64,000 nucleotides of DNA from a candidate division WOR-3 bacterium (GCA_016867815.1 VGIR01000002.1:912-64911); one strand, 5' to 3'; positions 7,661 to 55,286 are shown, counted from the stretch's first letter. Made by a program: numbers and translations. Notes: generated by a model from the letters alone, not told the origin.

Positions 7661-7663
7661 TTG

Positions 7664-22237: not shown

Positions 22238-23893
<1,656 letters not shown>

Positions 23894-24653: not shown

Positions 24654-24770
24654 TGGTCACAGGCATATCGTTCTTTGATAATTCGGATGTAACCCAAAGC
24701 GTGCTCGGGTTTGTGCCATAACTAGTTGATTCAAGACATCAGAGCAGACAGACCCCTAAGATTTTTTGCT

Positions 24771-26308
<1,538 letters not shown>

Positions 26309-37558: not shown

Positions 37559-38125
37559 CTACCGGCCGGGCGGTTCGTTCCACGACGCGATGTCGGGGAG
37601 CGGTTTGCGGGGGCGCTCATTGGGGGAGACGTCCGGGGCCGGATAGCCGAGCGCGATGAGCGCCACCGGCTTGTACCCCTTGCCGCGCAGACCCATGTGC
37701 TTGAGCAGCGCCCGGCCGTCATACCAGCCTATCCAGCACGTGCCCAGTCCCTGCTCGGCCGCGGCCAGCACGAAGTGCTCGCCGCCGATGCCGACGTCCA
37801 CCAACTGATACTGCGTGCCCTGAACCGCGCCGGCCACCCTGTTGACCAGCAGGTTCTCCTTCATGAGCAGGGCGACGAGGACCGGGGCGGCGGCGAACTT
37901 CTTCGACGCCGCATATGCGCCCACAAACACGGCGTCAGCCAGCTTCGCCTTCTTCTCCGGGTCGTCGAAGACGATGAACCGCCAAGGCTGCATGTTGTCC
38001 GCTGAGGGCGCGCGCCGCGCCGCCTCAAGGCAGAGTTCAAGTTTCTCGCGTTCCACCGGCCGGTCGGCAAACCGGCGCACCGACCGCCGGGTCCAGCAGA
38101 GCTTCAGGAAATGCAGATCACCCAC
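37559..38125 (-). CDS. Nitroreductase family protein
   Basis: 188 aa reading ...RRSVRRFADRPVEREKLELCLEAARRAPSADNMQPWRFIVF... Confidence 0.85.
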   Translation of the reverse strand: MGDLHFLKLCWTRRSVRRFADRPVEREKLELCLEAARRAPSADNMQPWRFIVFDDPEKKAKLADAVFVGAYAASKKFAAAPVLVALLMKENLLVNRVAGAVQGTQYQLVDVGIGGEHFVLAAAEQGLGTCWIGWYDGRALLKHMGLRGKGYKPVALIALGYPAPDVSPNERPRKPLPDIASWNEPPGR

Positions 38126-38242: not shown

Positions 38243-38989
38243 TCAGCTAATCAGCCTCGGCAGCAACTCTCCTGCCTTCTCCTTGAAATGTACGTCCACA
38301 ATCGAACCCAACCCGGTATCGCGCGGATTCACGTCAACGAGCATGGCCGCGGCCTCGTGCGCGAGCAGCGCCCACTGCAGGATATACCCGAACGACGCCT
38401 CCGTGCCGATGACGAAGCAAAGGTCAATCCGGCCCTCAAGGAAATAGTGGTGGATTTGCTCGACCGGCTGCCGCGGCAGGTTCTCGCCGAACCAGACAAT
38501 GTCCGGCCGCAAGACATTGCCGCACATACACAATGGCGGGATTTCCGAAAGCGGTGTTTCGCGGTTCTCGAGAACGGTGCCGTCGCGCTCGCACCGCGTG
38601 TGCCAGAGCGAGCCGTGGATGCGCACCACTTCCTTCGAACCGGCCTGCTCGTGCAGGTCATCAACGTTCTGGGTCACGACGAACACCCGCCTGCCCGGCT
38701 TCTCCAGCGCAGCCAGTGCCAGGTGTCCCGGGTTCGGCCTCGCCTGCGCCATGTTGCCCCGGCGCTCATCATACCACTTCCAGACCTTCACCGGGTCGCG
38801 CTTGAAAGCCTCGCGGGTCGCGTAGTCGAGCGGGTTGAACTCCCTCCATAGTCCCCGGTCGTCGCGGAACGTCGGGACGCCGGACTCGGCCGAAATGCCC
38901 GCGCCGGAGATGACCATGATGTTTTTCGCCCTGGCCACCCGCTCGCGCACCAGCGCGATGTCCTCAGTCGTGGTCGTTTCGGTCTTCAT
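38243..38989 (-). CDS. cobB: NAD-dependent protein deacylase (sirtuin, CobB/Sir2 family)
   Basis: 248 aa with ISGAGISAESGVPTFRD..., catalytic His, and zinc-ribbon cysteines. Confidence 0.9.
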   Translation of the reverse strand: MKTETTTTEDIALVRERVARAKNIMVISGAGISAESGVPTFRDDRGLWREFNPLDYATREAFKRDPVKVWKWYDERRGNMAQARPNPGHLALAALEKPGRRVFVVTQNVDDLHEQAGSKEVVRIHGSLWHTRCERDGTVLENRETPLSEIPPLCMCGNVLRPDIVWFGENLPRQPVEQIHHYFLEGRIDLCFVIGTEASFGYILQWALLAHEAAAMLVDVNPRDTGLGSIVDVHFKEKAGELLPRLIS

Positions 38990-39280: not shown

Positions 39281-40171
39281 CTAGAGCCCAGGCGGTTTGT
39301 CGCCGAACTGCCATCCGTCCGCGAGGAGCCGTTTCACTGCCGGAAAGTGGCTCTTTTCCGATATCGACTTGCTGGTGATTGGCGGCATGTTGTCTTTGGC
39401 AATTGTGCGGGCGACCAGCAGGCCAACAACAGGACCTGCTTGGATGGCGATGACTCCTAGCCATGCATTGACGAAGAACGCTGCAACACCAAACACGATG
39501 CCGATGGCCAAGCCGATGTATCCCGCCTTGTTGACGGAGTCATAGCCATGAACGTGCTCCTTCTGGCAGGCGGGACACCGTGGTACTGCGACGGTGGACT
39601 TCCTCCATTGGTAGTGCGTCCCGTATTGCGTTCCCCTATAGATGGGCGTCTTGCTCGTTACCTTATGCATTGACACTGGGACGGTCGCAGCAGCGTCAGG
39701 CGGGTGCTGCCCGCAGAACCAGCAGCTTCTGGTCTCGATCTCGGCTCGCGCGTCATCGAGCCACTCTTGATCTTGCGGGTTGTCACGCATCGCGACAGCC
39801 TTCTCCAAAAACGGAATCGCCTCTTCTGGTTTTCCCAACTGAACGAGCGTACTCCCCAGCCAATGAAAGTCTATGGCTGTGGCTCGCAGCTCTACGGCGG
39901 CGCGGAGATACAGAAGCGAGTGTTCTTTCTGTCCGTCCCGGGACAAGCTCTGACCGATCTTGGCAAGCCGCGCCGCGACTTCTGCGACACCCTCGTGCGC
40001 AAGAACAGTCTCGGCGCGGTTGAGTGCAGTGATGGTCTCCGGATGTGACTTGTTCTCGACCAGTAGGCGCATGTGCGCCCGCCTAATGTCGGCTCGCGTT
40101 GGCCGCAAGGGCAGTCCCAAAGCCTCCTCGTAGCGTTCGTCGGCGAGCAACAGAGCAACAGCGGCTGACAC
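39281..40171 (-). CDS. Membrane-anchored J-domain-like protein (HPE variant) with TPR repeats and a CxxC...CxxC zinc ribbon; putative co-chaperone of the adjacent Hsp70
   Basis: 296 aa. The N-terminus ...LGLPLRPTRADIRRAHMRLLVENKSHPE aligns with J-domain helix II/III, but HPD is replaced by HPE. TPR-like helices follow (LYLRAAVELR...LGKPEEAIPFLEKAV). It contains CWFC...CPAC and two C-terminal TM helices (IGLAIGIVFGVAAFFVNAWLGVIAI). It lies 7 nt downstream of the Hsp70 gene. Confidence 0.6.
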   Translation of the reverse strand: MSAAVALLLADERYEEALGLPLRPTRADIRRAHMRLLVENKSHPETITALNRAETVLAHEGVAEVAARLAKIGQSLSRDGQKEHSLLYLRAAVELRATAIDFHWLGSTLVQLGKPEEAIPFLEKAVAMRDNPQDQEWLDDARAEIETRSCWFCGQHPPDAAATVPVSMHKVTSKTPIYRGTQYGTHYQWRKSTVAVPRCPACQKEHVHGYDSVNKAGYIGLAIGIVFGVAAFFVNAWLGVIAIQAGPVVGLLVARTIAKDNMPPITSKSISEKSHFPAVKRLLADGWQFGDKPPGL

Positions 40172-40177
40172 GGGAGC

Positions 40178-42217
40178 CTACTTTTTCTCGTCCACCTTGC
40201 TAGGGATAGCGCTGAGCTCGTCAAGAAGCTCACGGAATCGTTTCGGCTCGATGTCCCCTGTGTCCAGTAGGACAGAAAGCAGCTCTCCCGTGCGGTGCAT
40301 GAGGTCAGGGCAGTCGTCATTCGGAGACCCCCCGGCACCCCCAGGCTGCGCTCTTTCGGCAAGTGCCTCCAGTTCCGCGGCCTTGCTCTTCACTCGATCG
40401 TCCCGCGACGACACCATGTCCAGCGCTCGGCGTGCCGTTCGGAGAAGACGCTCCCGGTGGGACTCAGTCCAACTCCCGCTCCGCCCCTTTGCAGCTTCCA
40501 GCCATCCCGCAACATCCTCCTTGGTCAGCGGATCTTCGTGTTCCTCTTGCGCCACGATTTCGCTACCATCGAGCTTGTCCAATCCAACGTAGGTCACCGT
40601 CTTCCCGGACTGGCGATGCTGCAGCGCAAGCGACAGTTTGCGGTTCTCGTCCAGCGACACCTTCACGTCCACCAAGGGCAATTCGCTGTTCGGCCTAAGG
40701 CCAACGGGGACATGACCGAGGAGTTGGTATGACCAGACATCGCTTCCTACCGTCGACTTCGCTGCGTCCGGCACCTTGGAGACAAGACGGAATTTCACTT
40801 GCAGGAGTGTCGGGTCGCCGTATACGACTGAAACGGTGCCATCAATGGGGTATGTTGAGTTCGGGGGGATCGCAGTGTCGAAACGCGGGGCATGGCCCTT
40901 GACGAAGAACGTGGTCCCATACCCGTAGGGCGACCGCTTGACGACTGGCTCGATCACACGACCAGCCTTCAGGGCTGCTCCCTGAGCTACACACTCCATT
41001 GGGTTCACAGGGAAGCCACGCTGTTCAATCTGGTCAATCTGGGTTAGCACCTCTGCTCGGACACCGAGTGTGGCAAGCTCTTCTCGCACAGCCTTTCTGA
41101 TACACGGCATGTGCACAGGCCCGCCGACAAATAGCACATGGTCCAGCTCCTTCGCGGCGACATTGGCCTGACGCAGAGCAACGCCTATCGGTGTGCGGCT
41201 CTTCGCAAGAAACGACTGGTCATCCCCGCTGGCAGACTCAGAGAGAAGCCGCTCCAGGTCTGCACGGGTCAGCTCTAGCGACTGACCATCGGGTGACTCC
41301 ACGACCGTGGATTGTCTCTTGGAGAGTCTGATTTTCGCTCGCTCGACCTCGCTACGCAGCATGGCTTTCATCTTCGGGTCGGCATCAACGTCGTTGAGGC
41401 CGTGCTCATCAACCAAGTGGCTATACAGAACGTCGTCCATGTCGAGCCCGCCGAGCTTCTCGTTACCTGACGTCGCCGCCTCTCCGGGCGCGAGCTTGCC
41501 GCCGACCTCGGTAATGTGCAGGACCGTCACGTCCAGGGTACCCGCACCCATGTCGTAGGCAAGAATAACGGATTCCTTCTGAAGCTGAAGTCCGTACTTG
41601 ACCGCCGCTGCAGTCGGCTCAGCAATCGTGCCGAAATCGGTGAACCCGGCGTCGGCCGCCGCTCTCTGTATGGGTTGAACCCGAGTGTCCTTGAAGTACG
41701 CAGGTACGCTGATGACAGCCCGGCTGATCAGACCTCCGCCGGTGAACAGGTTGAGCGCCCGGTTCTCGGCGTCCTCCTTCACCTCGCGGAGTATGAACGT
41801 CAGAACCTCGGTTGGCGTAAGCGTACGGCCAGCCACGTTGATGAGTATGCCTCGATCAGGCCCTTCGATGATGTCGTACTGGAATCGCCTCACGTCACCG
41901 CTCTTGCATGCGGCGGCGTATGACAGGCCGACGAGCCGTTTGACGCCCCAGATGACGTGTTTGGGATTGATGGCCCAATCTTCCTTCGCCTTCTGGCCAA
42001 CGTACTTGACGTTGCCGTCAGCGCCAAAAGAGACGAACGACGGGAACTGCTTGCCGTAGAGAGTCTTCCCGTAACGACTTTCTATCATAGCTGGTGTGCT
42101 ATCGCGGGCGAATGCCGCAGCCGAGTTGAAAGTCCCGAGGTCGATGCCTATTGTGCGTTCTTCCACATGTTCTCCTTCAAGCGGCGGGAGCCACCTTCTC
42201 CTGGCCTGCACTGACAA
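40178..42217 (-). CDS. Atypical Hsp70-family ATPase (DnaK/HscC-like nucleotide-binding domain with a divergent C-terminal region)
   Basis: 679 aa. Hsp70 nucleotide-binding-domain motifs are present: IGIDLGTFNSAAA (phosphate 1), VISVPAYF, DMGAGTLDV (phosphate 2) and LFVGGPVHMP (adenosine). The C-terminal ~250 aa lack the canonical substrate-binding-domain signature. The start is uncertain: the annotated ATG overlaps the upstream gene by 41 nt, and an in-frame GTG lies about 50 nt downstream. Confidence 0.85.
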   Translation of the reverse strand: MSVQARRRWLPPLEGEHVEERTIGIDLGTFNSAAAFARDSTPAMIESRYGKTLYGKQFPSFVSFGADGNVKYVGQKAKEDWAINPKHVIWGVKRLVGLSYAAACKSGDVRRFQYDIIEGPDRGILINVAGRTLTPTEVLTFILREVKEDAENRALNLFTGGGLISRAVISVPAYFKDTRVQPIQRAAADAGFTDFGTIAEPTAAAVKYGLQLQKESVILAYDMGAGTLDVTVLHITEVGGKLAPGEAATSGNEKLGGLDMDDVLYSHLVDEHGLNDVDADPKMKAMLRSEVERAKIRLSKRQSTVVESPDGQSLELTRADLERLLSESASGDDQSFLAKSRTPIGVALRQANVAAKELDHVLFVGGPVHMPCIRKAVREELATLGVRAEVLTQIDQIEQRGFPVNPMECVAQGAALKAGRVIEPVVKRSPYGYGTTFFVKGHAPRFDTAIPPNSTYPIDGTVSVVYGDPTLLQVKFRLVSKVPDAAKSTVGSDVWSYQLLGHVPVGLRPNSELPLVDVKVSLDENRKLSLALQHRQSGKTVTYVGLDKLDGSEIVAQEEHEDPLTKEDVAGWLEAAKGRSGSWTESHRERLLRTARRALDMVSSRDDRVKSKAAELEALAERAQPGGAGGSPNDDCPDLMHRTGELLSVLLDTGDIEPKRFRELLDELSAIPSKVDEKK

Positions 42218-43490
42218 TTACGTCCGCTGGGCGTAGCACTTCAAGTTCTTCAGGCGAGCCACCTCTGATGCAGTAGCCTTTGCGGGCTACAGACAGCACC
42301 GTGCCCGTCGGTGATGAATCTGGGCGCTTCTCCAAGATGTTGTGTTGCAGATGGACGAACGGCCGACCCATCTCCACGCGGATTTCCTCGATTCCTACGT
42401 CTTCGATCGTCCGTCGTGCGACGCGCAGTTCCCTCGCAAGCTCGCTGTTCATGCCACCGCGCGTCTCGGTCAGTTCGAGGTTGTCTAAGAGCGTGAACAG
42501 GCCGTTCGCAACTGCGTGGTAGCGCGAGCGGGCCTCCCTTGTGACCTCGCCGCCTTCCACTCCGAAGCGCCAGATGCTCGCCCCTAGGTCTCGCATCTTC
42601 TCACGCGCAGCGTCCATCGTTTCCGCAACAGCCGACGCCGTGTCAGCCAGCTCGCCGGCGGTCTGCCCTTCTCGGGCGACGTCAGCAGCGGATCGAGTTT
42701 CAGCGCGCCCCTCTCGTGGTCCAGCAACGAACCGCACAACGAAAGCTGTGACCAAGCATGCCAGAAGCAACCCCCCAACGATGGGAATCCAGAGGGGGAT
42801 ACCCCGGGACGAGCGAGACGGTTGGTTGGATGTGGTCACTAGAGTGCGAGCGAGCATCCGAAGTCTATCGCGGAGTGTGGCTAGATCAGGGGCACTGGAC
42901 ATGTGACCGCCTGCGGCTCGCGCCAAGTCTGCAAGCAGTGACGTGTTAGCGCCCTCTGCGCCGGCGAGCCCGGTTACTAGCACCCGGGATGCTGTCCGGC
43001 GCAGACGCGGGGCCGTCTGTTCAAGGAGGACGGCCGCTGCCGAGTCTGTTGCCCTAGCTCCCCCCGGGACATCAAGCCAGCCGTCGGTGAGCAGAACGAT
43101 GACTCTGTTGGCCATCGGGCGAGCAGCGGCGAGCAGCGAGTCGGACATCATCAGCCCAGGATTCACGTCAGTATAGCCGTCTGCGAACTTGAGACCTTTG
43201 GATTTGAGACCCTTCAGTATCGCTGCGCTGACGCCATCACGGCTAGAGTCGGCCATGACGGTCCACGGTACTATCAGTCTGGCCTCTGACCCGAAGGCCA
43301 CGACTGCAAGTCGGCATTGCGCATCAAGGGAGTCAGCAAACTCCGCCACTGCCGCCGCGGTTGACGCCGGTACGGAGCCGGAGTTGTCAATCACTAGCAC
43401 AACATCGGTCAGTCTCTCGGTCGGAGCCTGCGCTGAGAGAGCGATCGCTACGGCTACCAACAGCAGTACGAACGTGCGCACGGCGGTCAT
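42177..43490 (-). CDS. Fusion protein: signal peptide + periplasmic vWA (MIDAS) domain + single TM + cytoplasmic GrpE-like nucleotide-exchange domain
   Basis: 437 aa. It has signal peptide MTAVRTFVLLLVAVAIALSAQA, vWA MIDAS motif VLVIDNSGS...LLTDG, and TM helix IPLWIPIVGGLLLACLVTAFVV. The C-terminus ...DVGIEEIRVEMGRPFVHLQHNIL...PTGTVLSVARKGYCIRGG...EVLRPADVIVSAG matches the GrpE C-terminal block (G.PFDP..H.A...PGTV..V.QKGY.L..R.LRPA.V.V). It overlaps the AAA+ gene by 4 nt (ATGA). Confidence 0.7.
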   Translation of the reverse strand: MTAVRTFVLLLVAVAIALSAQAPTERLTDVVLVIDNSGSVPASTAAAVAEFADSLDAQCRLAVVAFGSEARLIVPWTVMADSSRDGVSAAILKGLKSKGLKFADGYTDVNPGLMMSDSLLAAARPMANRVIVLLTDGWLDVPGGARATDSAAAVLLEQTAPRLRRTASRVLVTGLAGAEGANTSLLADLARAAGGHMSSAPDLATLRDRLRMLARTLVTTSNQPSRSSRGIPLWIPIVGGLLLACLVTAFVVRFVAGPREGRAETRSAADVAREGQTAGELADTASAVAETMDAAREKMRDLGASIWRFGVEGGEVTREARSRYHAVANGLFTLLDNLELTETRGGMNSELARELRVARRTIEDVGIEEIRVEMGRPFVHLQHNILEKRPDSSPTGTVLSVARKGYCIRGGSPEELEVLRPADVIVSAGQEKVAPAA

Positions 43491-45658
43491 GAGTTCTCCT
43501 TCTTCTCTGCCCCGAAGCCGATGCGCTTTGGCTTCAGCTTCTTGGTTCCTTCCTGAACTCTGGCAATAGCCGCAGTGAGGTGAGCCATTTTCACCACAAT
43601 CCCGCGCGGCGCGAACTTGTTGTCACGCAGGGCGGAGAATGCGGCCTCGCGGCATACCTCGGCCAACTCGGCCCCGGAGAAGCCTTCCGTGATGGCCACA
43701 AGCCGGTCGACACGCACGTCGTCCGCCAGCGGTTTGCGCTTCAGGTGTACGTTCAAGACGGCCTTGCGCGCTCCGGCGTCCGGCAGTGGGACTTCAACTT
43801 GGTAGTCGAATCTGCCGGGCCGAAGCAGCGCGGGGTCGAGGATGTCCGGTCGGTTGGTGGCCCCGATGACGAACACGCCGTCCGCAGACTCGGCGCCGTC
43901 TATCTCGGACAGAATCTGGTTGACCACCGTGGCGTCCGCGCGTTCGCCGTAGCTGCCGAGTCCCTCCGACCTTGCGGCGGCCACCGCGTCAATCTCATCG
44001 AAGAAGACCACGCAGGGGGCGTTCTGCCGGGCTTTGGAGAAGATGAACCGGACACGGTGTTCAGATTCTCCGTACCACTTGGAGCGGATTTCCGGGCCTT
44101 TGACGAAAATGAAGTTGGCACCGCACTCGGCTGCCGCGGCCTTGGCGAGCAGGGTCTTTCCTGTCCCCGGTGGGCCGTACAGAAGGATGCCCTTGGCGGG
44201 CTTCACATCGGCGGCCTCGAAAGCCTCACGCTTGGTCATCGCGTAGGTGATGTTCTCGACCAGGAGTCGTTTCACGTTGTCGAGCCCGCCGACTTCGTCC
44301 CAACTCACGTGCGGGATTTCAATCATGAACTCGCGCATTGCGGATGGCGAGACTGTGGCCAGCGCCTGGTTGAAGTCAGCCTGTGTCACCTGCGTGTCGG
44401 CCGGGACTTCCTTGAGTTCCTCCATACCGGCCACGGGCATCACGCGCCGGAGTGCGTCATACGCCGCCTCACGGCACAGAGAGGCCAGGTCAGCCCCAAC
44501 GTAGCCGACGGCACGCTCTGCCACCGACGCCAAGTCGACCTCAGGTGACAGGGGCATGCCACGCGTGTGTATGAGCAGAATCTCCCGGCGCCCCGAGGGG
44601 TCCGGAACTCCAATCTGGATCTCGTGTTCGAACCGCCCTCCCCGTCTGAGCGCGGGGTCGATCGCGTCGATGCGGTTCGTAGTGCCGATAACCACGACAG
44701 GCCCCTTCTTCTGCTTCAGACCGTCCATTTGAGCAAGGAAAGTCGCAACAACCCGCTGCTCAAGGTCACCGTGCGCAGACTCGCGCTTTGGGACCAGGGA
44801 GTCGAGTTCGTCGACGACTACGATGGCTGGTGCGTGGTTCTCGGCTTCGTCGAAGATACCGCGAACGTTCTCTTCCGTCTTGCCGTACATCGACGTGAAC
44901 AACTCCGGCCCGCTCACGCAGTAGAAGTTGGCCTTGATCTGGCTGGCAAGAGCCTTGGCAATCAGCGTCTTTCCGGTTCCGGGCGGACCATGGAGGATGA
45001 TGCCGCGCGGCGGCGTAATCCCCATGCGCTGGAGGACTTGTGGAAACCGCAGTGGATACTCCACGATCTCGCGAACTCTCGCGATTTCACGGCCCAGGCC
45101 GCCGATGTCGTGATAGCCCAGGGGAGTCTGCACGACCGCCTCTGGCTTCGTAGTGACCTGCGTGTCAGCGGTAATGGCGCAGACCCCCTTTGGATCGGTG
45201 CGTACCACCACGACCGGTCTCGGCTCCCCTGTGAAAGTGAAGAAGGCAGTCTCCTCGCCATCGGTGATAGGCTTGCCCATTATCCCTTCGCGTTCCTTGT
45301 CGCTGAAGTCTACCGGTACGTTCAGTTGTACTCTGCGGGCCTTGCTCGGGGACGAGAACTCAACCGACACGCGGTCCGTAGTCTCGACAGCGAGACAGCG
45401 TAGCTTGTATCTGTCAATCTGCAGGCGGGTCCGCGTGCCCGTTCTTACGTCGTCAATGATGCAGCCGCAGGCGCGGCCGTGAGCCCGGATGGTGGCGTAG
45501 CAGAGGCCGCCACTTGCGCGAGCGGATTCGAAAGCTCTGCGCGCGTCTACGTGCACGTCGGTCACGCATTCCAGCAGGCCGCGGTGCGTGCCGTCCAGGT
45601 CTATGCGACCCGACACCTCGGCAGTCAGCTTGGCCTGCGTCAACAGACTGCCCCACAA
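43487..45658 (-). CDS. CDC48/VCP/VAT-like AAA+ ATPase (N-domain + tandem D1 and D2 AAA modules)
   Basis: 723 aa with a TTG start. It has an N-terminal double-psi-barrel-like region and two complete AAA cassettes (GPPGTGKTLIAKA...DELD...; GPPGTGKTLLAKA...DEID...), each with second-region-of-homology arginines. Confidence 0.9.
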   Translation of the reverse strand: MWGSLLTQAKLTAEVSGRIDLDGTHRGLLECVTDVHVDARRAFESARASGGLCYATIRAHGRACGCIIDDVRTGTRTRLQIDRYKLRCLAVETTDRVSVEFSSPSKARRVQLNVPVDFSDKEREGIMGKPITDGEETAFFTFTGEPRPVVVVRTDPKGVCAITADTQVTTKPEAVVQTPLGYHDIGGLGREIARVREIVEYPLRFPQVLQRMGITPPRGIILHGPPGTGKTLIAKALASQIKANFYCVSGPELFTSMYGKTEENVRGIFDEAENHAPAIVVVDELDSLVPKRESAHGDLEQRVVATFLAQMDGLKQKKGPVVVIGTTNRIDAIDPALRRGGRFEHEIQIGVPDPSGRREILLIHTRGMPLSPEVDLASVAERAVGYVGADLASLCREAAYDALRRVMPVAGMEELKEVPADTQVTQADFNQALATVSPSAMREFMIEIPHVSWDEVGGLDNVKRLLVENITYAMTKREAFEAADVKPAKGILLYGPPGTGKTLLAKAAAAECGANFIFVKGPEIRSKWYGESEHRVRFIFSKARQNAPCVVFFDEIDAVAAARSEGLGSYGERADATVVNQILSEIDGAESADGVFVIGATNRPDILDPALLRPGRFDYQVEVPLPDAGARKAVLNVHLKRKPLADDVRVDRLVAITEGFSGAELAEVCREAAFSALRDNKFAPRGIVVKMAHLTAAIARVQEGTKKLKPKRIGFGAEKKENS

Positions 45659-45855
45659 TCGTCATTGTGATGGATGATGACTCGGTCTAGCATGTGGAGG
45701 TCATAGCGGAAGGCTAGTTCAAGTCAAGCAGCGCGTCGGCGCCGTGGCGGTGGTGAAGAGTTACCGGACGACCCAGCGGAGGACGCGTCGGAGCGACGCG
45801 AGCTTCCAGTTTCCAGTCTGCAGGTTGCAGTGCAAAGGACCAATCGAAGAGATGC

Positions 45856-45893
45856 CGCGCAGGTCAAAGGTCAAAAGGCAAAGGTCAAAGGTC
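45856..45893. repeat. Tandem heptamer repeat (AAGGTCA-like) x5
   Basis: The sequence reads aggtcaaaggtcaaaaggcaaaggtcaaaggtcaag. Confidence 0.6.
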
Positions 45894-46335
45894 AAGATTG
45901 CCGGATGTCCAGGCCGGGTCGGGTCAAGTTCCGGCGCCGGAAATGGCGAGAAGAGAATCAGCCGGAAGGGGGTCCTGACCGAGTAGCGCGCGAAGGGGAA
46001 GAACCTTGAGGGGCAAGCGAAAATCTGCCCCTCGTCTTTCACGAGGCACGCCCAATCGCAGGCAGCAGTGCCCGCGTCCGTCTTCTCGGCCCTGAACTCG
46101 CCCCGCATCGCCCAGCGACCCACTGCGTCAGTTGCAGCCGGGTTTGCGGCTCGCCATTCAGCAGTAGTCACGCTCTCGGGCAGACTCTCACCTCCCTCTT
46201 CGCTGGCCGCCTTAGCTACGACCTAGCTCAGGGCTTGACCCCGAGCCTTGCTTGCGACCCGCAACACCCGTCTGCCCGCACTTCAACCCACGCCCTGACT
46301 CGCGGCCCCGCTTAGGACTCGACCCAGGATTCCGC

Positions 46336-46455
46336 ATCTCAATCGGCACTTCACTCGGCATTTCACTCAGCACTTGAGTCGGCAACTCAGTTAACCACTC
46401 AATTGGCATCTCACTCAGCTACTCATTCGGTATTTCACTAGTCCAGTCAATCGAG
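46336..46455. repeat. Degenerate 12-nt tandem array (~10 units, consensus AyTTCACTCGGC) in a long low-GC non-coding spacer
   Basis: The units are atctcaatcggc, acttcactcggc, atttcactcagc, acttgagtcggc, aactcagttaac, cactcaattggc, atctcactcagc, tactcattcggt, atttcactagtc and cagtcaatcgag. Related 'attcagtc' and 'gagtcact' motifs recur up to about 46620. Confidence 0.65.
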
Positions 46456-46919
46456 TAGTAACTAAAGCATTCAATCCTCGATTCAGTCGGCAAGTCAGCC
46501 GGAGATTCAGTCCTTACTTCACTTGCCAGGTCGCTGCTCGATTCAGTCGAGAGATTACCTGTCTACTCATCTGGGAAATCAGGCGGGGAGTCACTCCCGG
46601 TGTGACTGGGGGAGTCACTGGGGGATTCCTGATGTCAGTGCTGATGCAGGCGCTGGGGCGAATAGGATAGTATATTGATTCTATGATGGTTAGGCAGTCA
46701 CACCGCCGCGCTTGACCGTCGATTCTCTGTGCAGTACTGTGTTGAGCTAGGGTCACGTCTCTGTGAAGCGTGCTGATGGGCTCTGAGTACTGCATTCCGT
46801 GGTCCTCGGTGAACAAAGCCCGGCCGGTAACGGTGAAGACCACGCAATATGGATATGACCCGAGCAGTCTTTAGGGAAGTCAACCCGCGGGGGTGAGGCC
46901 CTGCGAATGGAGGAGAACA

Positions 46920-47444
46920 ATGAGTGACCCGGTGAAGCGAGCGGAGCGGTGGAAGGCAAAGTACAAGACCCAGCGGGTGAAAGAGACGCTGGACGACATC
47001 CGTGAAGACATGGCCAAGCGCTACGAAGCCGCGATTGCCGACGTCTGCGTGATGGAGGGCAAGGTCAAAGAGGTCATCAACGCGGCCGGGGTTTCGACCT
47101 CGCTGTACGTGCCCTACCTCAACTTCGGTCGGCAGCTCTACAAACTGACGCGTCAGCAGAACATCACGGGCGAGAGCTTTGCGATGGCTGCCCAGGTGCT
47201 CCTCGACAAATGGGCGGCGCGCGGCTGCGACGCCTGCACCGGGACACGAGCGGGCAGGCACTGCTCGAAACCGTGGTCGCCTTTCCGGTGCTCCTGTTCT
47301 TCATGCTGGTCGTCATGGAGTTGTCGCTGCTGTACAATGCCAAGCAGTTGGCAAACTACGCCGCGTTCTGCGCGGCCCGCACGGCAGCGGTCAACGGCGT
47401 CAGCGCTACCGGGAAAACGCACTTCGCCGCGGCGATGGCGATGA
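46920..47444 (+). CDS. Hypothetical protein at the head of the Tad locus; the 3' part is questionable because of a frame overlap with the next gene
   Basis: The ATG at 46920 is preceded by GGAGGAG. The first ~100 aa (MSDPVKRAERWKAKYKTQRVKETLDDIREDMAKRYEAAIADV...) are protein-like. The last ~75 aa are Cys/Ser/Trp-rich, junk-like, and overlap the TadE-like gene by 234 nt. Confidence 0.3.
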   Translation: MSDPVKRAERWKAKYKTQRVKETLDDIREDMAKRYEAAIADVCVMEGKVKEVINAAGVSTSLYVPYLNFGRQLYKLTRQQNITGESFAMAAQVLLDKWAARGCDACTGTRAGRHCSKPWSPFRCSCSSCWSSWSCRCCTMPSSWQTTPRSARPARQRSTASALPGKRTSPRRWR

Positions 47445-47842
47445 GTCCGCTTTCCTCCGCGACCAACGTCAATGCCAACGAGATCCTGCTCGACTACGGC
47501 CTGACGAACCCGACCCAGACGGTCGCGGCCATCTGCAGCATCCCCGGTTTCCAGGGCGACAACGACAAGTGGCTGGCTCGTCTCGCCAACGCCTACCTGA
47601 GGACCGGTGCGCCTTCTTTTGCCGTGGCAAACTACGGGACGCGGAAGAACGTCACCGCGAACGTCACCTACGTCTATCGCTGCAGCTTCTGGCCGTTCGG
47701 CATCGTCTGGGGCCAGTCGGCAATCACCACCTACTACAACTCGCTCCCGGCCATCATCAAGCCTTTCGCCACGTTCGTCAATACGTGGCGCTGGAACATT
47801 GTGATTCACGGCCGCGCCGTGACCGACTACTGGTCATCCTAG
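47210..47842 (+). CDS. TadE-like pilus assembly / pseudopilin protein
   Basis: 210 aa reading ...HRDTSGQALLETVVAFPVLLFFMLVVMELSLLYNAKQLANYAAFCAAR, the TadE N-terminal motif with a class-III signal-like hydrophobic helix. Confidence 0.7.
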   Translation: MGGARLRRLHRDTSGQALLETVVAFPVLLFFMLVVMELSLLYNAKQLANYAAFCAARTAAVNGVSATGKTHFAAAMAMSPLSSATNVNANEILLDYGLTNPTQTVAAICSIPGFQGDNDKWLARLANAYLRTGAPSFAVANYGTRKNVTANVTYVYRCSFWPFGIVWGQSAITTYYNSLPAIIKPFATFVNTWRWNIVIHGRAVTDYWSS

Positions 47843-47869
47843 CGGCATGAGGGTACAGGGGGAAACAAC

Positions 47870-49492
47870 ATGAAGCCGTCTTTCAGCCAACGATCGCCGG
47901 TCGCTCTCGGCCGGCGATTGCTCTCTGACACCAGCGGGCAGGTGCTGCTGTTCGGCGCCGTGCTGGTAGTGGCGATTCTGGCATTCCTGTTCGTGATACC
48001 GAACGGAACCCAGATTACCACCAAGAAGATGCGCGCGCAGACCGCGGCCGATGCCGGCGCCTTCACCGGTTCGGTCTGGCTGGCCCGCGCCACCAACCTG
48101 AGCTCGAACATGAACATCGGCATCAAGAGCGTATACGAGTGGACAACGGTGCTGACCGTAGGCTCGGCCCTGGCACAGGCGCTCTATTCCGACACGCTCG
48201 ACTCTTCGGTCCATGCTTTGGGCGGGCAGATCACGCTGGCATTGTTCGGCAGCTCGAACCCGGTGACGGTGCACACCACCGAGTACCCGAGTGCGATCCG
48301 GAAGCTGGATACCGCCGCGCAGTGGCTCTACTCGCTGCAGGGCGACATCGCTACCAGCTTCCACAGCGTGGCAGCCACGCTCGGCACCCAGCAGGCCTGC
48401 AGCAACGTGGGCGTGGCGTATCCGCCGACTCAGGCGGCGGGAGGCTGGGCGATTGTCCGGACCAACGACACGATACCGCTGCTGTTACCGACCACGGCCG
48501 GCGACAGCGTGATCTACGCCGGTCTGAGCCAGCTAGCGCTTGCTCTGGATACTCTTCCGACCCTGGATCCCAACATCACGCCCGCCTACGGGCAGGTGAT
48601 AGTCAGCCCGTCCACCTGGGACGTCTGGGCCTACTATTCCGATACGAGCCTCTGGTTTGACCGCGTCGACAGTATCTACCACTGCTACAAGAAACCCGTC
48701 ATTTTTGAGTTCCAGAACAACTACAGCGGGAAGGTCGACACCGGGATCCAGTACATGGACCCGAGTGACAAGGGATACCCCGACTACAATCGCGGAGACA
48801 GCTGGCCGAAGTGGGTCTTGTACTGTTCCGAGGGTGAAGGGAATCACCACGTCTTCATCTGGCCCAACGGGGTCGGCAATCCTCCCTACAAGAACACCGA
48901 CCAATGGACCTTGATCAACAACCCTCATCCCGGCAACAACCGCTACAAGTTCGACACCGTCTGGACGCATGTACACCTGGCCAAGAGCACGGATACGTCC
49001 AGCCTGAGTGACTACGTGAGCCCCGAGGAGTCGATCTGGCTCGAGGAACACGAAGACGAAATCCGCAGCCACTACTGGAAATCCACCGGGTTCTACACCG
49101 GCGTCGAATCCACCGTCCCCTACAAGGGACCGAAGGTCCGGCCCCGCCGGGTCAATCCCGGCCGGGAGTTTCGCACCGTATGCTATGTCTGGCGGCAGGG
49201 AGCCTCAAGTGCTCCCTACGGCCTGGGCGCGCCGCTGGGCGGTACTTTCTTCCCGCGTAACGCGGTGGCGGCGTCAAGCCCGATGTTCGCGGTTGCCCGG
49301 TCAGTGCCCTACCAGACCCTCAGCAGTCCCACCCAGAACGAGCTTTTCTTTGAACCATCCTGGGACGTCAAGCTAACTCCGTTTGATTCGCTGGCGGTCG
49401 TGGAGATCACCGGCGATACGGCGTATTGCGGGCGGACTGGGTACTGCTTCGACAACCTTGAGGAGCTGCGCAAGTATGCGTTGCTGCCATAG
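47870..49492 (+). CDS. TadG-like large Flp-pilus assembly protein (Tad/PF13400-like N-terminus)
   Basis: 540 aa reading ...LSDTSGQVLLFGAVLVVAILAFLFVIP...KKMRAQTAADAGAFTGSVWLARA... Confidence 0.7.
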   Translation: MKPSFSQRSPVALGRRLLSDTSGQVLLFGAVLVVAILAFLFVIPNGTQITTKKMRAQTAADAGAFTGSVWLARATNLSSNMNIGIKSVYEWTTVLTVGSALAQALYSDTLDSSVHALGGQITLALFGSSNPVTVHTTEYPSAIRKLDTAAQWLYSLQGDIATSFHSVAATLGTQQACSNVGVAYPPTQAAGGWAIVRTNDTIPLLLPTTAGDSVIYAGLSQLALALDTLPTLDPNITPAYGQVIVSPSTWDVWAYYSDTSLWFDRVDSIYHCYKKPVIFEFQNNYSGKVDTGIQYMDPSDKGYPDYNRGDSWPKWVLYCSEGEGNHHVFIWPNGVGNPPYKNTDQWTLINNPHPGNNRYKFDTVWTHVHLAKSTDTSSLSDYVSPEESIWLEEHEDEIRSHYWKSTGFYTGVESTVPYKGPKVRPRRVNPGREFRTVCYVWRQGASSAPYGLGAPLGGTFFPRNAVAASSPMFAVARSVPYQTLSSPTQNELFFEPSWDVKLTPFDSLAVVEITGDTAYCGRTGYCFDNLEELRKYALLP

Positions 49493-49496
49493 GGCC

Positions 49497-50102
49497 GTGA
49501 AGGTCAATCGTCCCGCTTCCATCTTCCATCGCCTGTGTTCCGACGACAGGGGATTGGCGGTGGTCGAAGGGATACTCGTCTTCGTGCTCCTTGCCGGAGT
49601 ACTGCTGGGCTGCGTCCTGCTGGGACAGTGGGGAACGCACCTGCAGAATTCGCAGATGGGCTCGCGGCTGCTGGCATTCAATGCCGGCAGCGCTTCGCTC
49701 GCTAAGTTCGGGAGAGCGGCCGACACTGCTACACAGACGCTTTCCAGTTCGAGCTGGGACACGCTGGCCGCCGGCCTGCCGGCAGGCTGGCTGAACACCA
49801 TGTTCGTGCTGCCGAACGAGAGCTACCGGGGCCGCGTGAAGGGCACGCAGCGGGGGCGGCTGCCGACTGCGGGCCCGTCCACGTTCAGCTTTTCGCCGTC
49901 GTCCGTGGGATACTTCACCAGCTCGGGCGCGGCGACGAACCCATGGAAGACGACGGTGACAGATGCCCGGACGACCTTCATGGGCATAGCCTACTACGTT
50001 GGGCGCTACCGGGTGAGTCCGCAGTCAATCGGTTCAAAACAGACAATCCCGCCCGCGATCCCGGTTGTGGAGAGCATCTACAGCCGTATGGGAGGCCGGT
50101 AG
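49497..50102 (+). CDS. TadE-like pseudopilin (second copy)
   Basis: The GTG start at 49497 gives VKVNRPASIFHRLCSDDRGLAVVEGILVFVLLAGVLLGCVLLGQW, the TadE N-terminal pattern. The longer ATG ORF would overlap the upstream gene. Confidence 0.55.
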   Translation: MKVNRPASIFHRLCSDDRGLAVVEGILVFVLLAGVLLGCVLLGQWGTHLQNSQMGSRLLAFNAGSASLAKFGRAADTATQTLSSSSWDTLAAGLPAGWLNTMFVLPNESYRGRVKGTQRGRLPTAGPSTFSFSPSSVGYFTSSGAATNPWKTTVTDARTTFMGIAYYVGRYRVSPQSIGSKQTIPPAIPVVESIYSRMGGR

Positions 50103-50107
50103 CAGCC

Positions 50108-50848
50108 GTGAAGGTAGTGCTGCGTGTGGTCCTGACGGTGCTGGTGGTCGTGCTCGGGCTGGTGGTCGGTATCAAGCTGACCCCGGGGCTGGCCTCCTGG
50201 ACCGGCCTCGGACGGCGGGCGACGGCTCCCGAACTTCAGTCCGCGCTGGCCGGCGGGACGCAGCCGGACTGGGGCGGCGGACGGGTGACGTTTTCCAACC
50301 GTTCTGCGGCGGGGAGTATTGACTCGGCCAGGACGGCATCGCCGGGAGATAAGTCAAGCCAGCAGACCTTCTCCGGTTCCGCCGGCGGGGTCCTGCTAAG
50401 GCAGAAGTCGGACTCCGACTACGCGCTCACACTGGCGCTGCGGTCCCGCGGCCAGGAGAAGACCACGTTGTTTGAGGTGCCATCATCCGGACGTTTCCGG
50501 AAAGAGATGCTTCCCGGAGAAGCAGATGCCGAGCCCCCGGCCGCGGACATACCTCTCTACCCACAGTCGAGCTGTCGGATGCAGGTGGGCCGCGGCACCG
50601 CTACTTTCATCGGGTTCTACCTGACACCCGACAGCGTGGAAGCGGTGCGTTCCTTCTACATCCGGGCCTTGACTCGACTTGGCTGGCAGCACCTGGCCGC
50701 CGGCGGCCCCGGATTCGTGGAGACTTTCACCAAGCGCAAAGATGACCGGTCGGTCGTTGTGCAGTTGAGGAGACAGGACTCGGTGACGACGCGCATCGGC
50801 CTGGTGGCAACGACCTCGGGCGGTCCTACCCCAAGCGAAAGGAAATGA
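50108..50848 (+). CDS. Membrane-anchored hypothetical protein in the Tad locus
   Basis: The GTG start gives VKVVLRVVLTVLVVVLGLVVGI, an N-terminal TM anchor. The rest is a ~220 aa soluble domain with no recognisable motif and no Walker A, so it is not TadZ/CpaE. Confidence 0.45.
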   Translation: MKVVLRVVLTVLVVVLGLVVGIKLTPGLASWTGLGRRATAPELQSALAGGTQPDWGGGRVTFSNRSAAGSIDSARTASPGDKSSQQTFSGSAGGVLLRQKSDSDYALTLALRSRGQEKTTLFEVPSSGRFRKEMLPGEADAEPPAADIPLYPQSSCRMQVGRGTATFIGFYLTPDSVEAVRSFYIRALTRLGWQHLAAGGPGFVETFTKRKDDRSVVVQLRRQDSVTTRIGLVATTSGGPTPSERK

Positions 50849-50854
50849 ACTGAT

Positions 50855-51610
50855 ATGGCGGATGAGCAGAAAGCCAGTCTGATTCCCTCGGGTTCCCTGC
50901 GGACGCTGATTATCGCCGTGCTGCTGGGCGTAGTCGGCATCGCCCTCATGAACATGTACTTCCGCTCCCGAACCAAGAAAGTGCAGTGGGTTTCGGTCGC
51001 GGTCGCCACCAAGCAGATTACCGGCGGGGACACCATCCGCAACGGCTCGCTGGTAGCCAAGGACCTGCCCAAGGAAGTGATCGGCGGCAAGTTCGTCGAA
51101 GGCAAGGACATCGTTGCCGTTACCGGCAGGGTCGTCGGCGTGGAAATGGACCCCGGTCAGCCTCTCTATTGGAACGCCATTCCGCTTTCGGCCCAGGGCG
51201 GCTACGACAAGTACCTGAGGCCGGAGCTCAGGGAGAGGGCGTTTGCGCTGACCCTGGGCGGAGTGCTCAGTTCCGGAACCAGGGCCGGGGACGTGATCGA
51301 CATCCTGGGCACCTATTCTTCCGAAGGGAGCCGCCGGACGGCATTTGAGGTGCTGCCCGCGGTGACGGTCATCGACAAGATCGGCTCAGTGCTGGTGCTC
51401 AGCGTCACGCCGGAGGAGCAGTTGCTGCTCCTTGCCGCTCAGCCTTTCGAGCTGACCATGTCCATTCGCAGCAAGCTGGAGCCGAATACGGACCTGAAGA
51501 TGACGCCGGTCAGCATGAACGAAGTCCTGCCCCGGGCCAAAGAACTGGGAACGGCAAGAGCGGCGAGACTGCGCAAGGAGGCGGCGGATGGGAAGATCCA
51601 ACGTGACTGA
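50855..51610 (+). CDS. cpaB: Flp pilus assembly protein CpaB/RcpC
   Basis: 251 aa with an N-terminal TM helix (LRTLIIAVLLGVVGIALMNMYF) and SAF-like domains (…VAVATKQITGGDTI…). Confidence 0.8.
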   Translation: MADEQKASLIPSGSLRTLIIAVLLGVVGIALMNMYFRSRTKKVQWVSVAVATKQITGGDTIRNGSLVAKDLPKEVIGGKFVEGKDIVAVTGRVVGVEMDPGQPLYWNAIPLSAQGGYDKYLRPELRERAFALTLGGVLSSGTRAGDVIDILGTYSSEGSRRTAFEVLPAVTVIDKIGSVLVLSVTPEEQLLLLAAQPFELTMSIRSKLEPNTDLKMTPVSMNEVLPRAKELGTARAARLRKEAADGKIQRD

Positions 51611-51629
51611 TACTCGAAAGGGACACGGC

Positions 51630-52790: not shown

Positions 52791-52803
52791 GGAGTAACGG
52801 ACA

Positions 52804-54447: not shown

Positions 54448-54466
54448 GTTCGCGTCATACGCCGCC

Positions 54467-55279
54467 GTGTTCATAGCCGTGGCCCTTATCGGCCAGCTCG
54501 CGCTGCAGGCCCTGGACGTCTACCGCCGCCGATTCATCGTCCAGACCGAGGAGAAGGTCGAGTCGCTCTACCTGGGCGTTTCACCGCAGCGGTTGTGGCT
54601 CTTCTCGCTCATGGCCGCGGGCGGCGGCGCGCTCCTGCTGGGCCTGGTGTCGGATTTCGCGATCGTGCTGGTCGGGGCGGGGGCCGTGGGCGGGTTCATG
54701 GCACCGCGTTTCTACCTGAATGCCATGGAGCAGCAACGGCGCAAGAAGTTCGACGCCCAGTTGCTTGACGCCATCCCCATGCTGGCCGGCGCCATGAAAG
54801 CCGGCATGAGCCTGATGCAGGCGATGGAGCAGGTCACCAGGGAAATGGGAGCGCCGATACGGCAGGAATTCGCCCACGCCCTGCAGGAGAACCGGGTCGG
54901 CAAGCCGATCATCCAGGCACTTCTGGATATGAAGAACCGCATTCGCTCGGATGACCTCGATATCACCGTGAACGCCATCAGCATCTCGCAGGAGACCGGC
55001 GGAGTGCTGTCCGACCTGCTGGTCAAGATGGGCGAGACAATCCGCACTCGAAACCGGGTGCGGTCGAAGATAGTGACGTTGTCTTCTCAGGGACGCCTGC
55101 AGGGCATCATCATGATCTTCATCCCCTGGTTTCTGGCGCTGGTCGTGTCAATGCTCGACCCGGGCATGATACGTCCGATGTTCACTACCAGTACCGGGCA
55201 GTTGATGCTGGTGGTGATTATCATACTCGAGGGCCTGGGGTGGCTGGTAATCCGACGGATCGTGGCTATCGACGTCTAG
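54467..55279 (+). CDS. tadB: Flp pilus assembly inner membrane protein TadB
   Basis: A GTG start after the cpaF stop is chosen. The protein has an N-terminal TM helix and a GspF/T2SSF-like domain (…LLDAIPMLAGAMKAGMSLMQAMEQV…) plus C-terminal TM helices. Confidence 0.75.
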   Translation: MFIAVALIGQLALQALDVYRRRFIVQTEEKVESLYLGVSPQRLWLFSLMAAGGGALLLGLVSDFAIVLVGAGAVGGFMAPRFYLNAMEQQRRKKFDAQLLDAIPMLAGAMKAGMSLMQAMEQVTREMGAPIRQEFAHALQENRVGKPIIQALLDMKNRIRSDDLDITVNAISISQETGGVLSDLLVKMGETIRTRNRVRSKIVTLSSQGRLQGIIMIFIPWFLALVVSMLDPGMIRPMFTTSTGQLMLVVIIILEGLGWLVIRRIVAIDV

Positions 55280-55286
55280 GAGGCAC

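Follow-up and report, generated by a model that had tools for sequence, protein, structure and literature searches.

Cdc48/p97 has been regarded as an archaeal-eukaryotic segregase, and its few bacterial homologues have been treated as isolated archaeal transfers or, in the case of Cpa, as proteasome partners. Archaeal-like Cdc48 genes are sporadic in non-actinobacterial bacteria, for which the genomic context was not given, and Cpa is found only in Actinobacteria, where its gene shares a transcript with psd and pssA and its product interacts with the 20S proteasome (Ziemski et al. 2018, PMC6017811). We analysed a 64,000-nucleotide stretch of DNA from a candidate division WOR-3 bacterium (GCA_016867815.1, VGIR01000002.1:912-64911; hereafter the window), in which a gene for a Cdc48/VAT-like AAA+ ATPase of the N-D1-D2 type (an N-domain followed by two AAA modules) heads an operon that also encodes a GrpE-like protein, an Hsp70 and a J-like protein.

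Two further kinds of chaperone machinery are relevant to this arrangement. ClpB is a Clp/Hsp100 protein whose M-domain coiled coil binds DnaK. Membrane-tethered J or J-like proteins and GrpE-type cofactors are a hallmark of the Hsp70 motors that work at membranes, such as the mitochondrial presequence translocase-associated motor (PAM; Pam18/Pam16/mtHsp70/Mge1) and Sec63/BiP of the endoplasmic reticulum (ER); canonical J-domains need an HPD motif to stimulate Hsp70, and Pam16 is a J-like protein without it. The bacterial DnaK derivatives were described as largely unexplored in a 2026 review. Other combinations of vWA, AAA+ and Hsp70 proteins, centred on MoxR-type AAA+ proteins, GTPases or McrB, are described in the accessible parts of Kaur et al. 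2020 (PMC7159879) and of the account of the type III CoCoNuT systems (PMC11090510); as far as the latter goes, the p97-like ATPases associated with CoCoNuT have one active ring only and carry other fusions. An N-D1-D2 Cdc48-like ATPase followed by a transmembrane (TM) GrpE protein, an Hsp70 and a J-like protein is not described in those parts of the two papers.

In this study, we propose that the ATPase is a divergent unfoldase of the Cdc48/p97/VAT lineage and that its gene opens a conserved, horizontally mobile operon with a private Hsp70 system, the products forming a two-chaperone machine at the inner face of the membrane. We put the probability of this reading at roughly 0.55.

Identity of the ATPase

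In Pfam, the ATPase matched two AAA domains (PF00004, 296 bits) and two AAA_lid_3 domains. Among the NCBIfam models, the CDC48 model TIGR01243 ranked first with 705.5 bits (amino acids (aa) 78-681 aligned), followed by PAN (515), FtsH (472) and Mpa/ARC (364). When the protein was compared with the PDB sequences, plant CDC48A and mammalian p97 were matched with approximately 590 bits over D1-D2 and Thermoplasma VAT with 583 bits, the alignment starting from aa 17; the next ranks were taken by Afg2/SPATA5 (420-482 bits) and NVL/Rix7 (344-400 bits). No Clp-specific Pfam or NCBIfam match to a Clp N-domain, an M-domain or a Clp D2 small domain was found, ClpA scoring merely 29.8 bits. The AAA_2 match was marginal (29.6 bits against a cut-off of 27, no single matched stretch passing alone), and the MoxR-type model AAA_3 stayed under its cut-off (24.6 bits against 27). 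The ATPase lies outside the FtsH- and ClpC-like clades, as is seen from both rankings and from the D1 and D2 trees described below.

The catalytic residues of both rings, i.e. the Walker A, Walker B, sensor-1 and arginine-finger residues, were kept in approximately 100% of 113 homologues in a motif scan. Both rings have an aromatic pore loop 1 (Table 1), and the family consensus in D1 is KWYG. A hexameric ring with unfoldase or segregase activity is a predicted property of the ATPase. The C-terminal tail is conserved in the family as KLxP[KR]xIGF followed by variable residues, and the protein of the window ends in ...KKLKPKRIGFGAEKKENS. Through this motif, the ATPase might dock on the TPR partner.

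The score against TIGR01243 is below the curated cut-off of 802.65 bits, which speaks against full membership of the CDC48 subfamily, and the protein is merely named 'AAA family ATPase' at NCBI, in line with that score. On these comparisons, the ATPase would be best treated as a member of a divergent sister subfamily of Cdc48/p97/VAT.

Three starts are available for the gene, namely TTG at 45658, which gives the longest open reading frame (ORF), TTG at 45643 (718 aa) and GTG at 45616 (709 aa, the NCBI call). Since the homologues start 6-10 residues ahead of the GR motif and the entries in Logan and NCBI have 718 and 709 aa, the longest ORF is probably over-extended and the true start is TTG 45643 or GTG 45616.

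The N-domain

In the original prediction, made from the bare sequence, the protein was taken for a type II AAA+ ATPase whose N-domain is Cdc48-like. The N-domain was the decisive point of this claim and was not readily recognised. CDC48_N (PF02359) gave no match in the Pfam scan of the ATPase, the CDC48_2 match at aa 127-173 was just over the cut-off (24.1 against 22.4 bits), and a single-sequence search of the PDB with the N-domain by itself (aa 1-178) returned nothing significant. When a profile was made from an alignment of the N-domains of 29 homologues, all 60 of the 60 PDB chains listed were p97/CDC48 N-domains, with a best E value of 2.3e-4 and in the correct register. An AlphaFold2 model built on the same 29-sequence alignment had a mean predicted local distance difference test (pLDDT) score of 87.8 and a predicted template modelling (TM) score of 0.81, and the top 50 Foldseek matches of the model were all the p97 N-domain, with E values of approximately 3e-9 and TM-scores of 0.62-0.69 in both normalisations against isolated N-domains. 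Because the profile and the predicted model led to the same structures, we conclude that the N-domain has the Cdc48 fold, as originally claimed. It is strongly diverged and is recognisable by profile or fold comparison rather than from a single sequence.

The motif GRxDLDGTHR at the start of the N-domain is missing from the canonical Cdc48 proteins. Its DLDGT core resembles motif I of the HAD superfamily by sequence only; the fold is that of a Cdc48 N-domain and not Rossmann-like as in HAD proteins.

The partner genes

The four genes run head to tail on the minus strand in the order ATPase, GrpE-like, Hsp70 and J-like. The ATPase stop and the start of the GrpE-like gene overlap by 4 nucleotides (ATGA, within ...AAC TCA TGA), and a Shine-Dalgarno sequence AAGGAG stands ahead of this start. 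The coupling of the ATPase gene to the vWA-GrpE gene had been claimed originally, and the overlap agrees with it. The gap between the GrpE-like gene and the Hsp70 gene is 10 nucleotides long and holds AGGAG, which lies 6 nucleotides upstream of the Hsp70 GTG start at 42166. Only 6 nucleotides separate the Hsp70 stop from the J-like gene.

The product of gene 2 combines a vWA domain, a TM helix and a GrpE-like region (Table 1). A protein identical to it is named 'nucleotide exchange factor GrpE' at NCBI, and it scored under the NCBIfam GrpE equivalog cut-offs. Since the N-terminus is signal-peptide-like and is followed by the vWA domain, the TM helix and the GrpE region in that order, the vWA domain is predicted to be outside the cytoplasm and the GrpE region inside.

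The product of gene 3 is a full-length and non-canonical Hsp70. In the PDB, DnaK was its best match, with 175 bits in the nucleotide-binding domain, and the catalytic residues were invariant in 46 homologues. The AlphaFold2 model had a pLDDT of 92.1 and was matched by Foldseek to full-length DnaK (E 7e-38, approximately 680 columns); because the model superposes on full-length DnaK, the substrate-binding domain and the lid are present. The score of 224 bits against the DnaK NCBIfam models was far under their cut-offs of 648-822 bits, and the HscA equivalog cut-off was likewise far off.

The product of gene 4 had been annotated merely as a TPR protein. Pfam gave no DnaJ match in it. However, its N-terminus was aligned by BLASTP to the J-domain of Escherichia coli DnaJ (E 3e-5), with HPE opposite HPD, and a profile of eight orthologous N-termini retrieved J-domains almost exclusively from the structures, with a best E value of 2.5e-5. 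The protein also carries TPR (Pfam) and a zinc-ribbon-like CxxC...CxxC motif. Two points thereby go beyond the original prediction: the fourth gene is recognised as encoding a putative J-like co-chaperone, and the co-chaperones are predicted to be membrane-anchored, with the vWA domain outside the cytoplasm. The operon encodes a predicted unfoldase and a complete, non-canonical Hsp70 set with a predicted tether to the membrane. The coordinates of all features are collected in Table 1.

Table 1. Features of the operon and its surroundings in the window, with the basis of each assignment
Feature	Position	Strand	Basis or remark
Cdc48/VAT-like N-D1-D2 AAA+ ATPase gene	43487..45658	minus	longest ORF, 723 codons; Pfam, NCBIfam, PDB search
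N-domain (Cdc48-type double-psi barrel + beta-clam)	45101..45616 (aa 15-186)	minus	CDC48_2, profile search, AlphaFold2/Foldseek
GRxDLDGTHR motif	45574-45603 (aa 19-28)	minus	clade-specific, invariant, at N-domain start
D1 AAA module	44294..45100	minus	Walker A GPPGTGKT (aa 224), Walker B VVDE (aa 283-284), pore loop SMYG, sensor-1 TNR, Arg fingers RRGGRFE; Pfam AAA + AAA_lid_3
D2 AAA module	43544..44293	minus	Walker A GPPGTGKT (aa 495), Walker B FFDE, pore loop KWYG, Arg fingers RPGRFD; aligned to CDC48A
KLxP[KR]xIGF motif	43514-43540 (aa 707-715)	minus	family-specific, near ATPase C-terminus
Membrane-anchored GrpE-like exchange factor gene (437 aa)	42177..43490	minus	Pfam, NCBIfam, hydropathy
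Signal peptide or first TM helix of GrpE-like protein	aa 1-19	minus	hydropathy
vWA domain of GrpE-like protein, DxSxS metal ion-dependent adhesion site (MIDAS) intact	aa 29-207 (42870-43406)	minus	Pfam VWA_2 45.8 bits, VWA 39.2 bits, both over cut-off
TM helix of GrpE-like protein	aa 237-255 (42726-42782)	minus	hydropathy
GrpE-like region, predicted to be cytoplasmic	aa 279-429 (42204-42656)	minus	PF01025 29.1 bits, cut-off 25.8; NCBIfam GrpE alignment
Non-canonical full-length Hsp70 gene (662 aa): nucleotide-binding domain, beta part of the substrate-binding domain, helical lid	40178..42166	minus	Pfam HSP70 231 bits; AlphaFold2; Foldseek
J-like co-chaperone/adaptor gene (296 aa)	39281..40171	minus	BLASTP, profile, Pfam TPR, hydropathy
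Degenerate J-like domain, HPE for HPD	aa 9-57 (40001-40147)	minus	BLASTP and profile
Hydrophobic hairpin of J-like protein	aa 220-255 (39407-39514)	minus	hydropathy
CobB-type sirtuin gene	38243-38989	minus	PF02146, 152 bits
Nitroreductase gene	37559-38125	minus	
Sigma-70-like site	39026-38999		between the cassette and the sirtuin and nitroreductase genes
Heptamer array AGGTCAA x5	45861-45895		TTGACCT x5 on the cassette strand
Degenerate 24-nucleotide repeat x4.4	46334-46439		
Tad/Flp pilus cluster	47210-56791	opposite to cassette	TadE, TadG-like, secretin, CpaF, TadB/C
tRNA-Val gene	21584-21657		
groEL	22238-23893		
16S rRNA gene, complete	24767-26308		

Conservation of the module

Homologues of the ATPase were searched for among 5.8 billion proteins, and more than 110 clusters of homologues of approximately 700 aa were obtained, with 47-58% identity to the ATPase of the window. 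Hidden Markov models of the four components were then scanned over 57 fetched loci (numbered L001 onwards). The order AAA/GrpE-like/Hsp70/J-like was found in every distinct locus with enough downstream DNA, i.e. 14 including the window, the other 13 being L003, L048, L006, L008, L009, L013, L037, L046, L028, L030, L033, L036 and L041. The gene overlaps in the related loci are usually 4 nucleotides. Where the DNA of a locus ends early (L001, L031 and L053), the expected signal peptide-vWA gene begins. The hosts include a sediment metagenome (L003), Sedimentisphaerales of the Planctomycetota (L006), a metagenome-assembled genome (MAG) labelled Saccharimonadales (L008), a Deltaproteobacteria MAG (L009) and Candidatus Sulfotelmatobacter of the Acidobacteriota (L013), and the loci span at least four phylum-level labels. 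The module of L008/L014 is nearly the same as that of L013/L034 (Candidatus Sulfotelmatobacter), with an ATPase distance of 0.16. This near-identity may be explained by wrong binning of the contig or by a transfer in the very recent past, and Saccharimonadales is therefore better left out of the count of independent phyla.

The pairwise distances of the ATPases and of the Hsp70s correlate among 11 systems (Mantel r 0.82, p 0.0002), a correlation partly due to three groups of close relatives. Moreover, at least 34 of the 120 Hsp70 clusters listed agree with a listed ATPase cluster in the size of the longest contig. The functional linkage of ATPase, vWA-GrpE and Hsp70 that had been argued originally from the window is supported, far better than by the overlap of the two genes, by the order kept at 47-58% ATPase identity and under several phylum labels, and by the correlated distances.

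The GrpE Pfam model was over its cut-off in all eight orthologous partners inspected (27-54 bits), and the vWA domain was found in five of these eight. L028 is the only locus whose GrpE-like protein has no TM helix; there, the anchor sits in the J-like protein. As its variable part, gene 4 carries TPR, an RCC1 propeller placed after a TM helix, or no recognised domain, and never a recognisable enzyme. Between near-identical operons, the client-binding or ectodomain part of this gene is swapped: gene 4 of L048 (5601-7076) consists of a J-like domain, a TM helix and an RCC1 beta-propeller (408 bits), and its close relative L003 has a 109-aa J-like/TM protein instead.

Genome contigs scanned with the single ATPase yielded just two close relatives and a different archaeal group, so that few named genomes carry it. 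The N-domain profile found 25 protein representatives at E <= 1e-10, mostly fragments, a count that is no measure of abundance: the family collapses at 50% identity clustering.

Phylogenetic placement

For the D1 and D2 modules, neighbour-joining trees were built and rooted reciprocally (244 columns, 200 bootstraps). The module-linked ATPases were monophyletic in 199-200 of the 200 bootstraps in D1 and in 195-198 in D2. In the D1 tree, the module clade was joined with VAT, Arabidopsis CDC48A and archaeal CDC48 in 200/200, against an archaeal membrane-integral group of approximately 875 aa; in the D2 tree, the same grouping reached only 24/200. Within the families sampled, the module ATPases have a clade of their own, which groups with VAT and CDC48 in D1 and only weakly so in D2.

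The archaeal group just mentioned (L015-L025; MAGs of Methanosuratincola/Methanomethylicia, Thermoproteota and Nitrososphaerota) has proteins of approximately 875 aa with 4-10 predicted N-terminal TM helices and tandem Cdc48-like D1-D2 modules. They are 35-38% identical to the window ATPase, form a clade of their own and have the appearance of membrane-integral Cdc48-like ATPases.

A stand-alone 'CDC48 family AAA ATPase' is encoded on plasmid pR132502 of Rhizobium leguminosarum (L058 6539-8782, 747 aa), with no Hsp70 or GrpE genes nearby. Its D1 distance is 0.38 to VAT and 0.67 to the module clade, which it joined in 0/200 (D1) and 2/200 (D2) bootstraps, the module clade itself holding in 200/200 (D1) and 198/200 (D2). 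Because this protein is VAT-like and falls outside the module clade, the window ATPase appears to stand in a bacterial subfamily of its own and not among the sporadic archaeal-like bacterial Cdc48 proteins; this point, too, extends what had been predicted. CDC48 genes were also seen on haloarchaeal megaplasmids.

Possible horizontal transfer and genomic surroundings

That the host is a bacterium is seen from the 16S rRNA gene of the window, which is of bacterial type, and the source is labelled candidate division WOR-3. Proteins identical to the GroEL, NAD synthase, ATPase, GrpE-like and TPR products of the window are on record for a MAG with this label. The GC content at third codon positions (GC3) of three cassette genes is the lowest in the window, 0.66-0.69 compared with 0.80 +/- 0.04 among 49 called genes (z -2.8 to -3.5), and the ATPase gene, with 0.76, is less deviant. 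The cassette as a whole has an atypically low GC3 compared with the window genes (Mann-Whitney p = 0.0007), and the flanking genes differ at every module locus. This fits a horizontal spread of the module as a unit that has been partly ameliorated in the window, and the horizontal acquisition that had been thought plausible remains so, with low GC3 in three of the four genes and variable flanks. Low GC3 could also come from low expression. No integrase was found with the cassette and no att-like flanking repeats at 38-48 kb, where the counts of promoters, terminators and repeats were not above the shuffled expectation.

Upstream of the cassette, approximately 1.5 kb (45659-47209) hold no convincing gene. 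The heptamer array in this interval lies approximately 200-240 nucleotides ahead of the ATPase start, and it and the degenerate 24-nucleotide repeat are possibly a regulator binding array or an insertion remnant. After the cassette, the sirtuin and nitroreductase genes follow on the same strand behind the sigma-70-like site; their GC3 is normal, and they have no linkage to the module in the other loci. Elsewhere in the window, the tRNA-Val gene and groEL stand just upstream of the 16S rRNA gene. The rRNA genes appear to be unlinked, because the next feature after the 16S gene is a minus-strand protein gene at 26407 and no 23S or 5S gene lies in the 64 kb.

Proposed mechanism and alternatives

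In nearly all versions of the module, at least one co-chaperone would be anchored in the cytoplasmic membrane, and this protein would often project a protein-binding domain to the outside, i.e. the vWA domain with its MIDAS in the window and an RCC1 propeller elsewhere. At the inner face, the Hsp70 may be positioned and concentrated on a membrane-associated client, and driven through its cycle, by the tethered exchange factor and the J-like/TPR adaptor. The ATPase, which is predicted to be hexameric and like VAT has active sites and aromatic pore loops in each ring, would then thread the client and unfold or extract it. By analogy with DnaK and ClpB, and with Hsp70 and Cdc48 in eukaryotes, we infer that the ATPase and the Hsp70 may cooperate physically; the 'segregase plus Hsp70 relay' of the original prediction is to be read in this conditional sense.

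The predicted external position of the vWA and RCC1 domains suggests the binding or sensing of something outside the cytoplasm. As to the biological role, we tentatively consider two possibilities. The Hsp70 set might feed a Cdc48-type unfoldase that pulls proteins from or through the cytoplasmic membrane, in a manner like ER-associated degradation (ERAD), or external binding by the vWA MIDAS or RCC1 might be coupled to ATP-driven remodelling inside.

Several observations weigh against a cooperating machine of this kind. The DnaK-type interdomain linker DVLLLD is missing from the Hsp70 family consensus. HPD is not conserved in the J-like family: the tripeptide reads HPE in the proteins of the window and of L003, and the remaining six sequences of the alignment lack it. 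Because both the linker and a conserved HPD are lacking, the Hsp70 cycle may run differently, or the J-like domain may only tether. The membrane topology comes from a simple hydropathy scan. In addition, the components are not always found together. In L051 and L052, the ATPase copy is fragmented and without partners: at L051 6334-8420, and likewise in L052, the N-domain is a separate 176-aa ORF, D1-D2 is a shortened 473-aa ORF, and no GrpE-like or Hsp70 gene follows downstream. This is probably a decaying copy. L027 has an Hsp70 and J-like/TPR pair without the ATPase and GrpE-like genes; there (7001-10216), an Hsp70 of the same subfamily, more distant at 36% identity, is followed by a J-like/TPR protein. 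Possibly, the Hsp70 and J-like genes are the older core, and the ATPase and tethered exchange factor joined them later. Finally, the deep position of the module clade is provisional, since a distance method was used and NSF, PEX1/6 and Cpa were not sampled.

The same molecular mechanism would also be compatible with a conflict or stress-sensing system, e.g. an anti-phage system, in which the vWA or RCC1 domains sense an invader or envelope damage and gate cytoplasmic ATPases that unfold or sequester proteins of the host or the invader. We regard this role as rather unlikely. The patchy occurrence across phyla, the variable flanks and the atypical codon usage would suit it, but the operon encodes no nuclease, protease, pore-former or other recognisable effector, its variable parts being TPR and RCC1. 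Whereas defence-like or toxin genes lie in some flanks, i.e. those for a SIR2_2-NACHT-TPR protein and HepT/MNT in L006 and for an RHS toxin, beside a transposase, in L003, many other flanks consist of ordinary metabolic or housekeeping genes. In PADLOC-DB v2, no match was found for the Hsp70, the GrpE-like or the J-like protein, and the ATPase matched only the generic IetA/TRIP13 AAA, with no IetS-type protease as a partner. Although vWA, AAA+ and Hsp70 proteins recur in predicted conflict systems, as described in the accessible parts of PMC7159879 and PMC11090510, the ATPase is not of the MoxR type. Furthermore, no copy was found in the viral contigs scanned.

It is very improbable that the ATPase is a protease activator, working as archaeal VAT/Cdc48 or Cpa does with the 20S proteasome, and that the Hsp70 genes merely deliver substrates. 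The closeness to VAT (583 bits) and the VAT-like aromatic pore loops of both rings are offset by the C-terminus, which ends in the KLxP[KR]xIGF tail and has no HbYX-type 20S docking motif or similar motif in the window or in the family consensus. No protease gene lies in or beside any operon examined, and the context of Cpa, a psd-pssA operon in Actinobacteria, is a different one (PMC6017811).

A dedicated assembly or quality-control factor for the adjoining Tad/Flp pilus was also considered, because the Tad genes begin approximately 1.5 kb upstream of the cassette, on the opposite strand, and vWA-containing pilins occur in Tad systems. This role can hardly be credited: no Tad genes were found near the module in the other loci examined, and it was rejected since the linkage is not conserved. 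A merely fortuitous adjacency of independent ATPase and Hsp70 genes deserves next to no weight, the frames overlapping or nearly abutting, the gene order recurring in 14 distinct loci from several phyla, the distances co-varying, and the ATPase clade itself being defined by its linkage to Hsp70.

A two-chaperone machine at the membrane thus remains our preferred reading. No description of the four-gene operon was found in the full-text literature, a coverage outside which most subscription journals lie; the Cdc48 subfamily and its operonic pairing with an Hsp70 set appear to be new, and a prior description is possible. What stands out is a distinct bacterial Cdc48 subfamily defined by its genetic linkage to an Hsp70, an exchange factor and a J-like adaptor of its own, which is of relevance to both the AAA+ and the chaperone fields. 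The fusion of the exchange factor to an external vWA domain is an architecture that suggests control of the Hsp70 cycle from outside the cell. If the module indeed extracts or remodels proteins at the membrane, it would be the first known Hsp70 system hard-wired to a Cdc48-family ATPase, and this partnership would not be a eukaryotic invention. It would also offer a simple four-gene system in which the hand-over of substrates between Hsp70 and a Cdc48-type ATPase at a membrane could be studied.

Comparison with known systems

The module ATPase shares with VAT, Cdc48 and p97 the N-D1-D2 layout with a double-psi barrel and beta-clam in the N-domain, approximately 45% identity over D1-D2, and the Walker A/B, sensor-1 and arginine-finger residues of both rings. 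In the pore loops, it is like VAT, which has aromatic KYYG in D1 and KWVG in D2, and unlike p97/CDC48A, which has KLAG in D1. It differs from VAT and p97 in scoring under the TIGR01243 cut-off, in its diverged N-domain, in the motifs GRxDLDGTHR and KLxP[KR]xIGF, in the lack of HbYX and in forming its own clade. The linkage to an Hsp70 gene is a feature of the module ATPase and not of VAT or p97.

Compared with the sporadic bacterial Cdc48 proteins, such as that of Rhizobium pR132502, the module ATPase has in common a bacterial host, the N-D1-D2 layout and a probable horizontal origin. However, the Rhizobium protein is stand-alone, has a canonical N-domain and is closer to VAT. Cpa is likewise a bacterial N-D1-D2 ATPase of the Cdc48 family without HbYX. 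The module differs from it in the WOR-3 host, in the operon of an Hsp70 and its co-chaperones and in that no proteasome is in evidence, a distinction that is one of context.

As far as the accessible parts of their descriptions go, the MoxR-vWA and CoCoNuT systems resemble the module in combining AAA+ and vWA proteins, in some cases with Hsp70/GrpE/DnaJ-TPR proteins, and in their patchy distribution. In contrast to the MoxR-vWA systems, the module ATPase is Cdc48-like and of the classic clade, and the vWA domain is fused to a TM helix and GrpE.

The membrane-bound Hsp70 motors PAM and Sec63-BiP are similar to the module in that a membrane-anchored J or J-like protein is combined with an Hsp70 and a GrpE-type exchange factor to act on polypeptides at a membrane. 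Unlike them, the module has no translocon gene, its exchange factor is itself anchored and fused to an external vWA domain, and a Cdc48-type ATPase is encoded in the operon.

DnaK-DnaJ-GrpE with ClpB is proposed as the functional analogue; there, too, an Hsp70 and its J-type and GrpE-type cofactors are combined with a double-ring AAA+ threading motor. The module ATPase differs from ClpB in belonging to the classic AAA clade and in having a Cdc48 N-domain and no M-domain. Compared with the DnaK system, the module Hsp70 is far under the DnaK cut-offs, the J-like protein has no conserved HPD, the cofactors are membrane-anchored, and the four genes form one operon. If the four proteins cooperate, the module would represent a second bacterial AAA+/Hsp70 two-chaperone solution beside ClpB-DnaK, built around a different motor.

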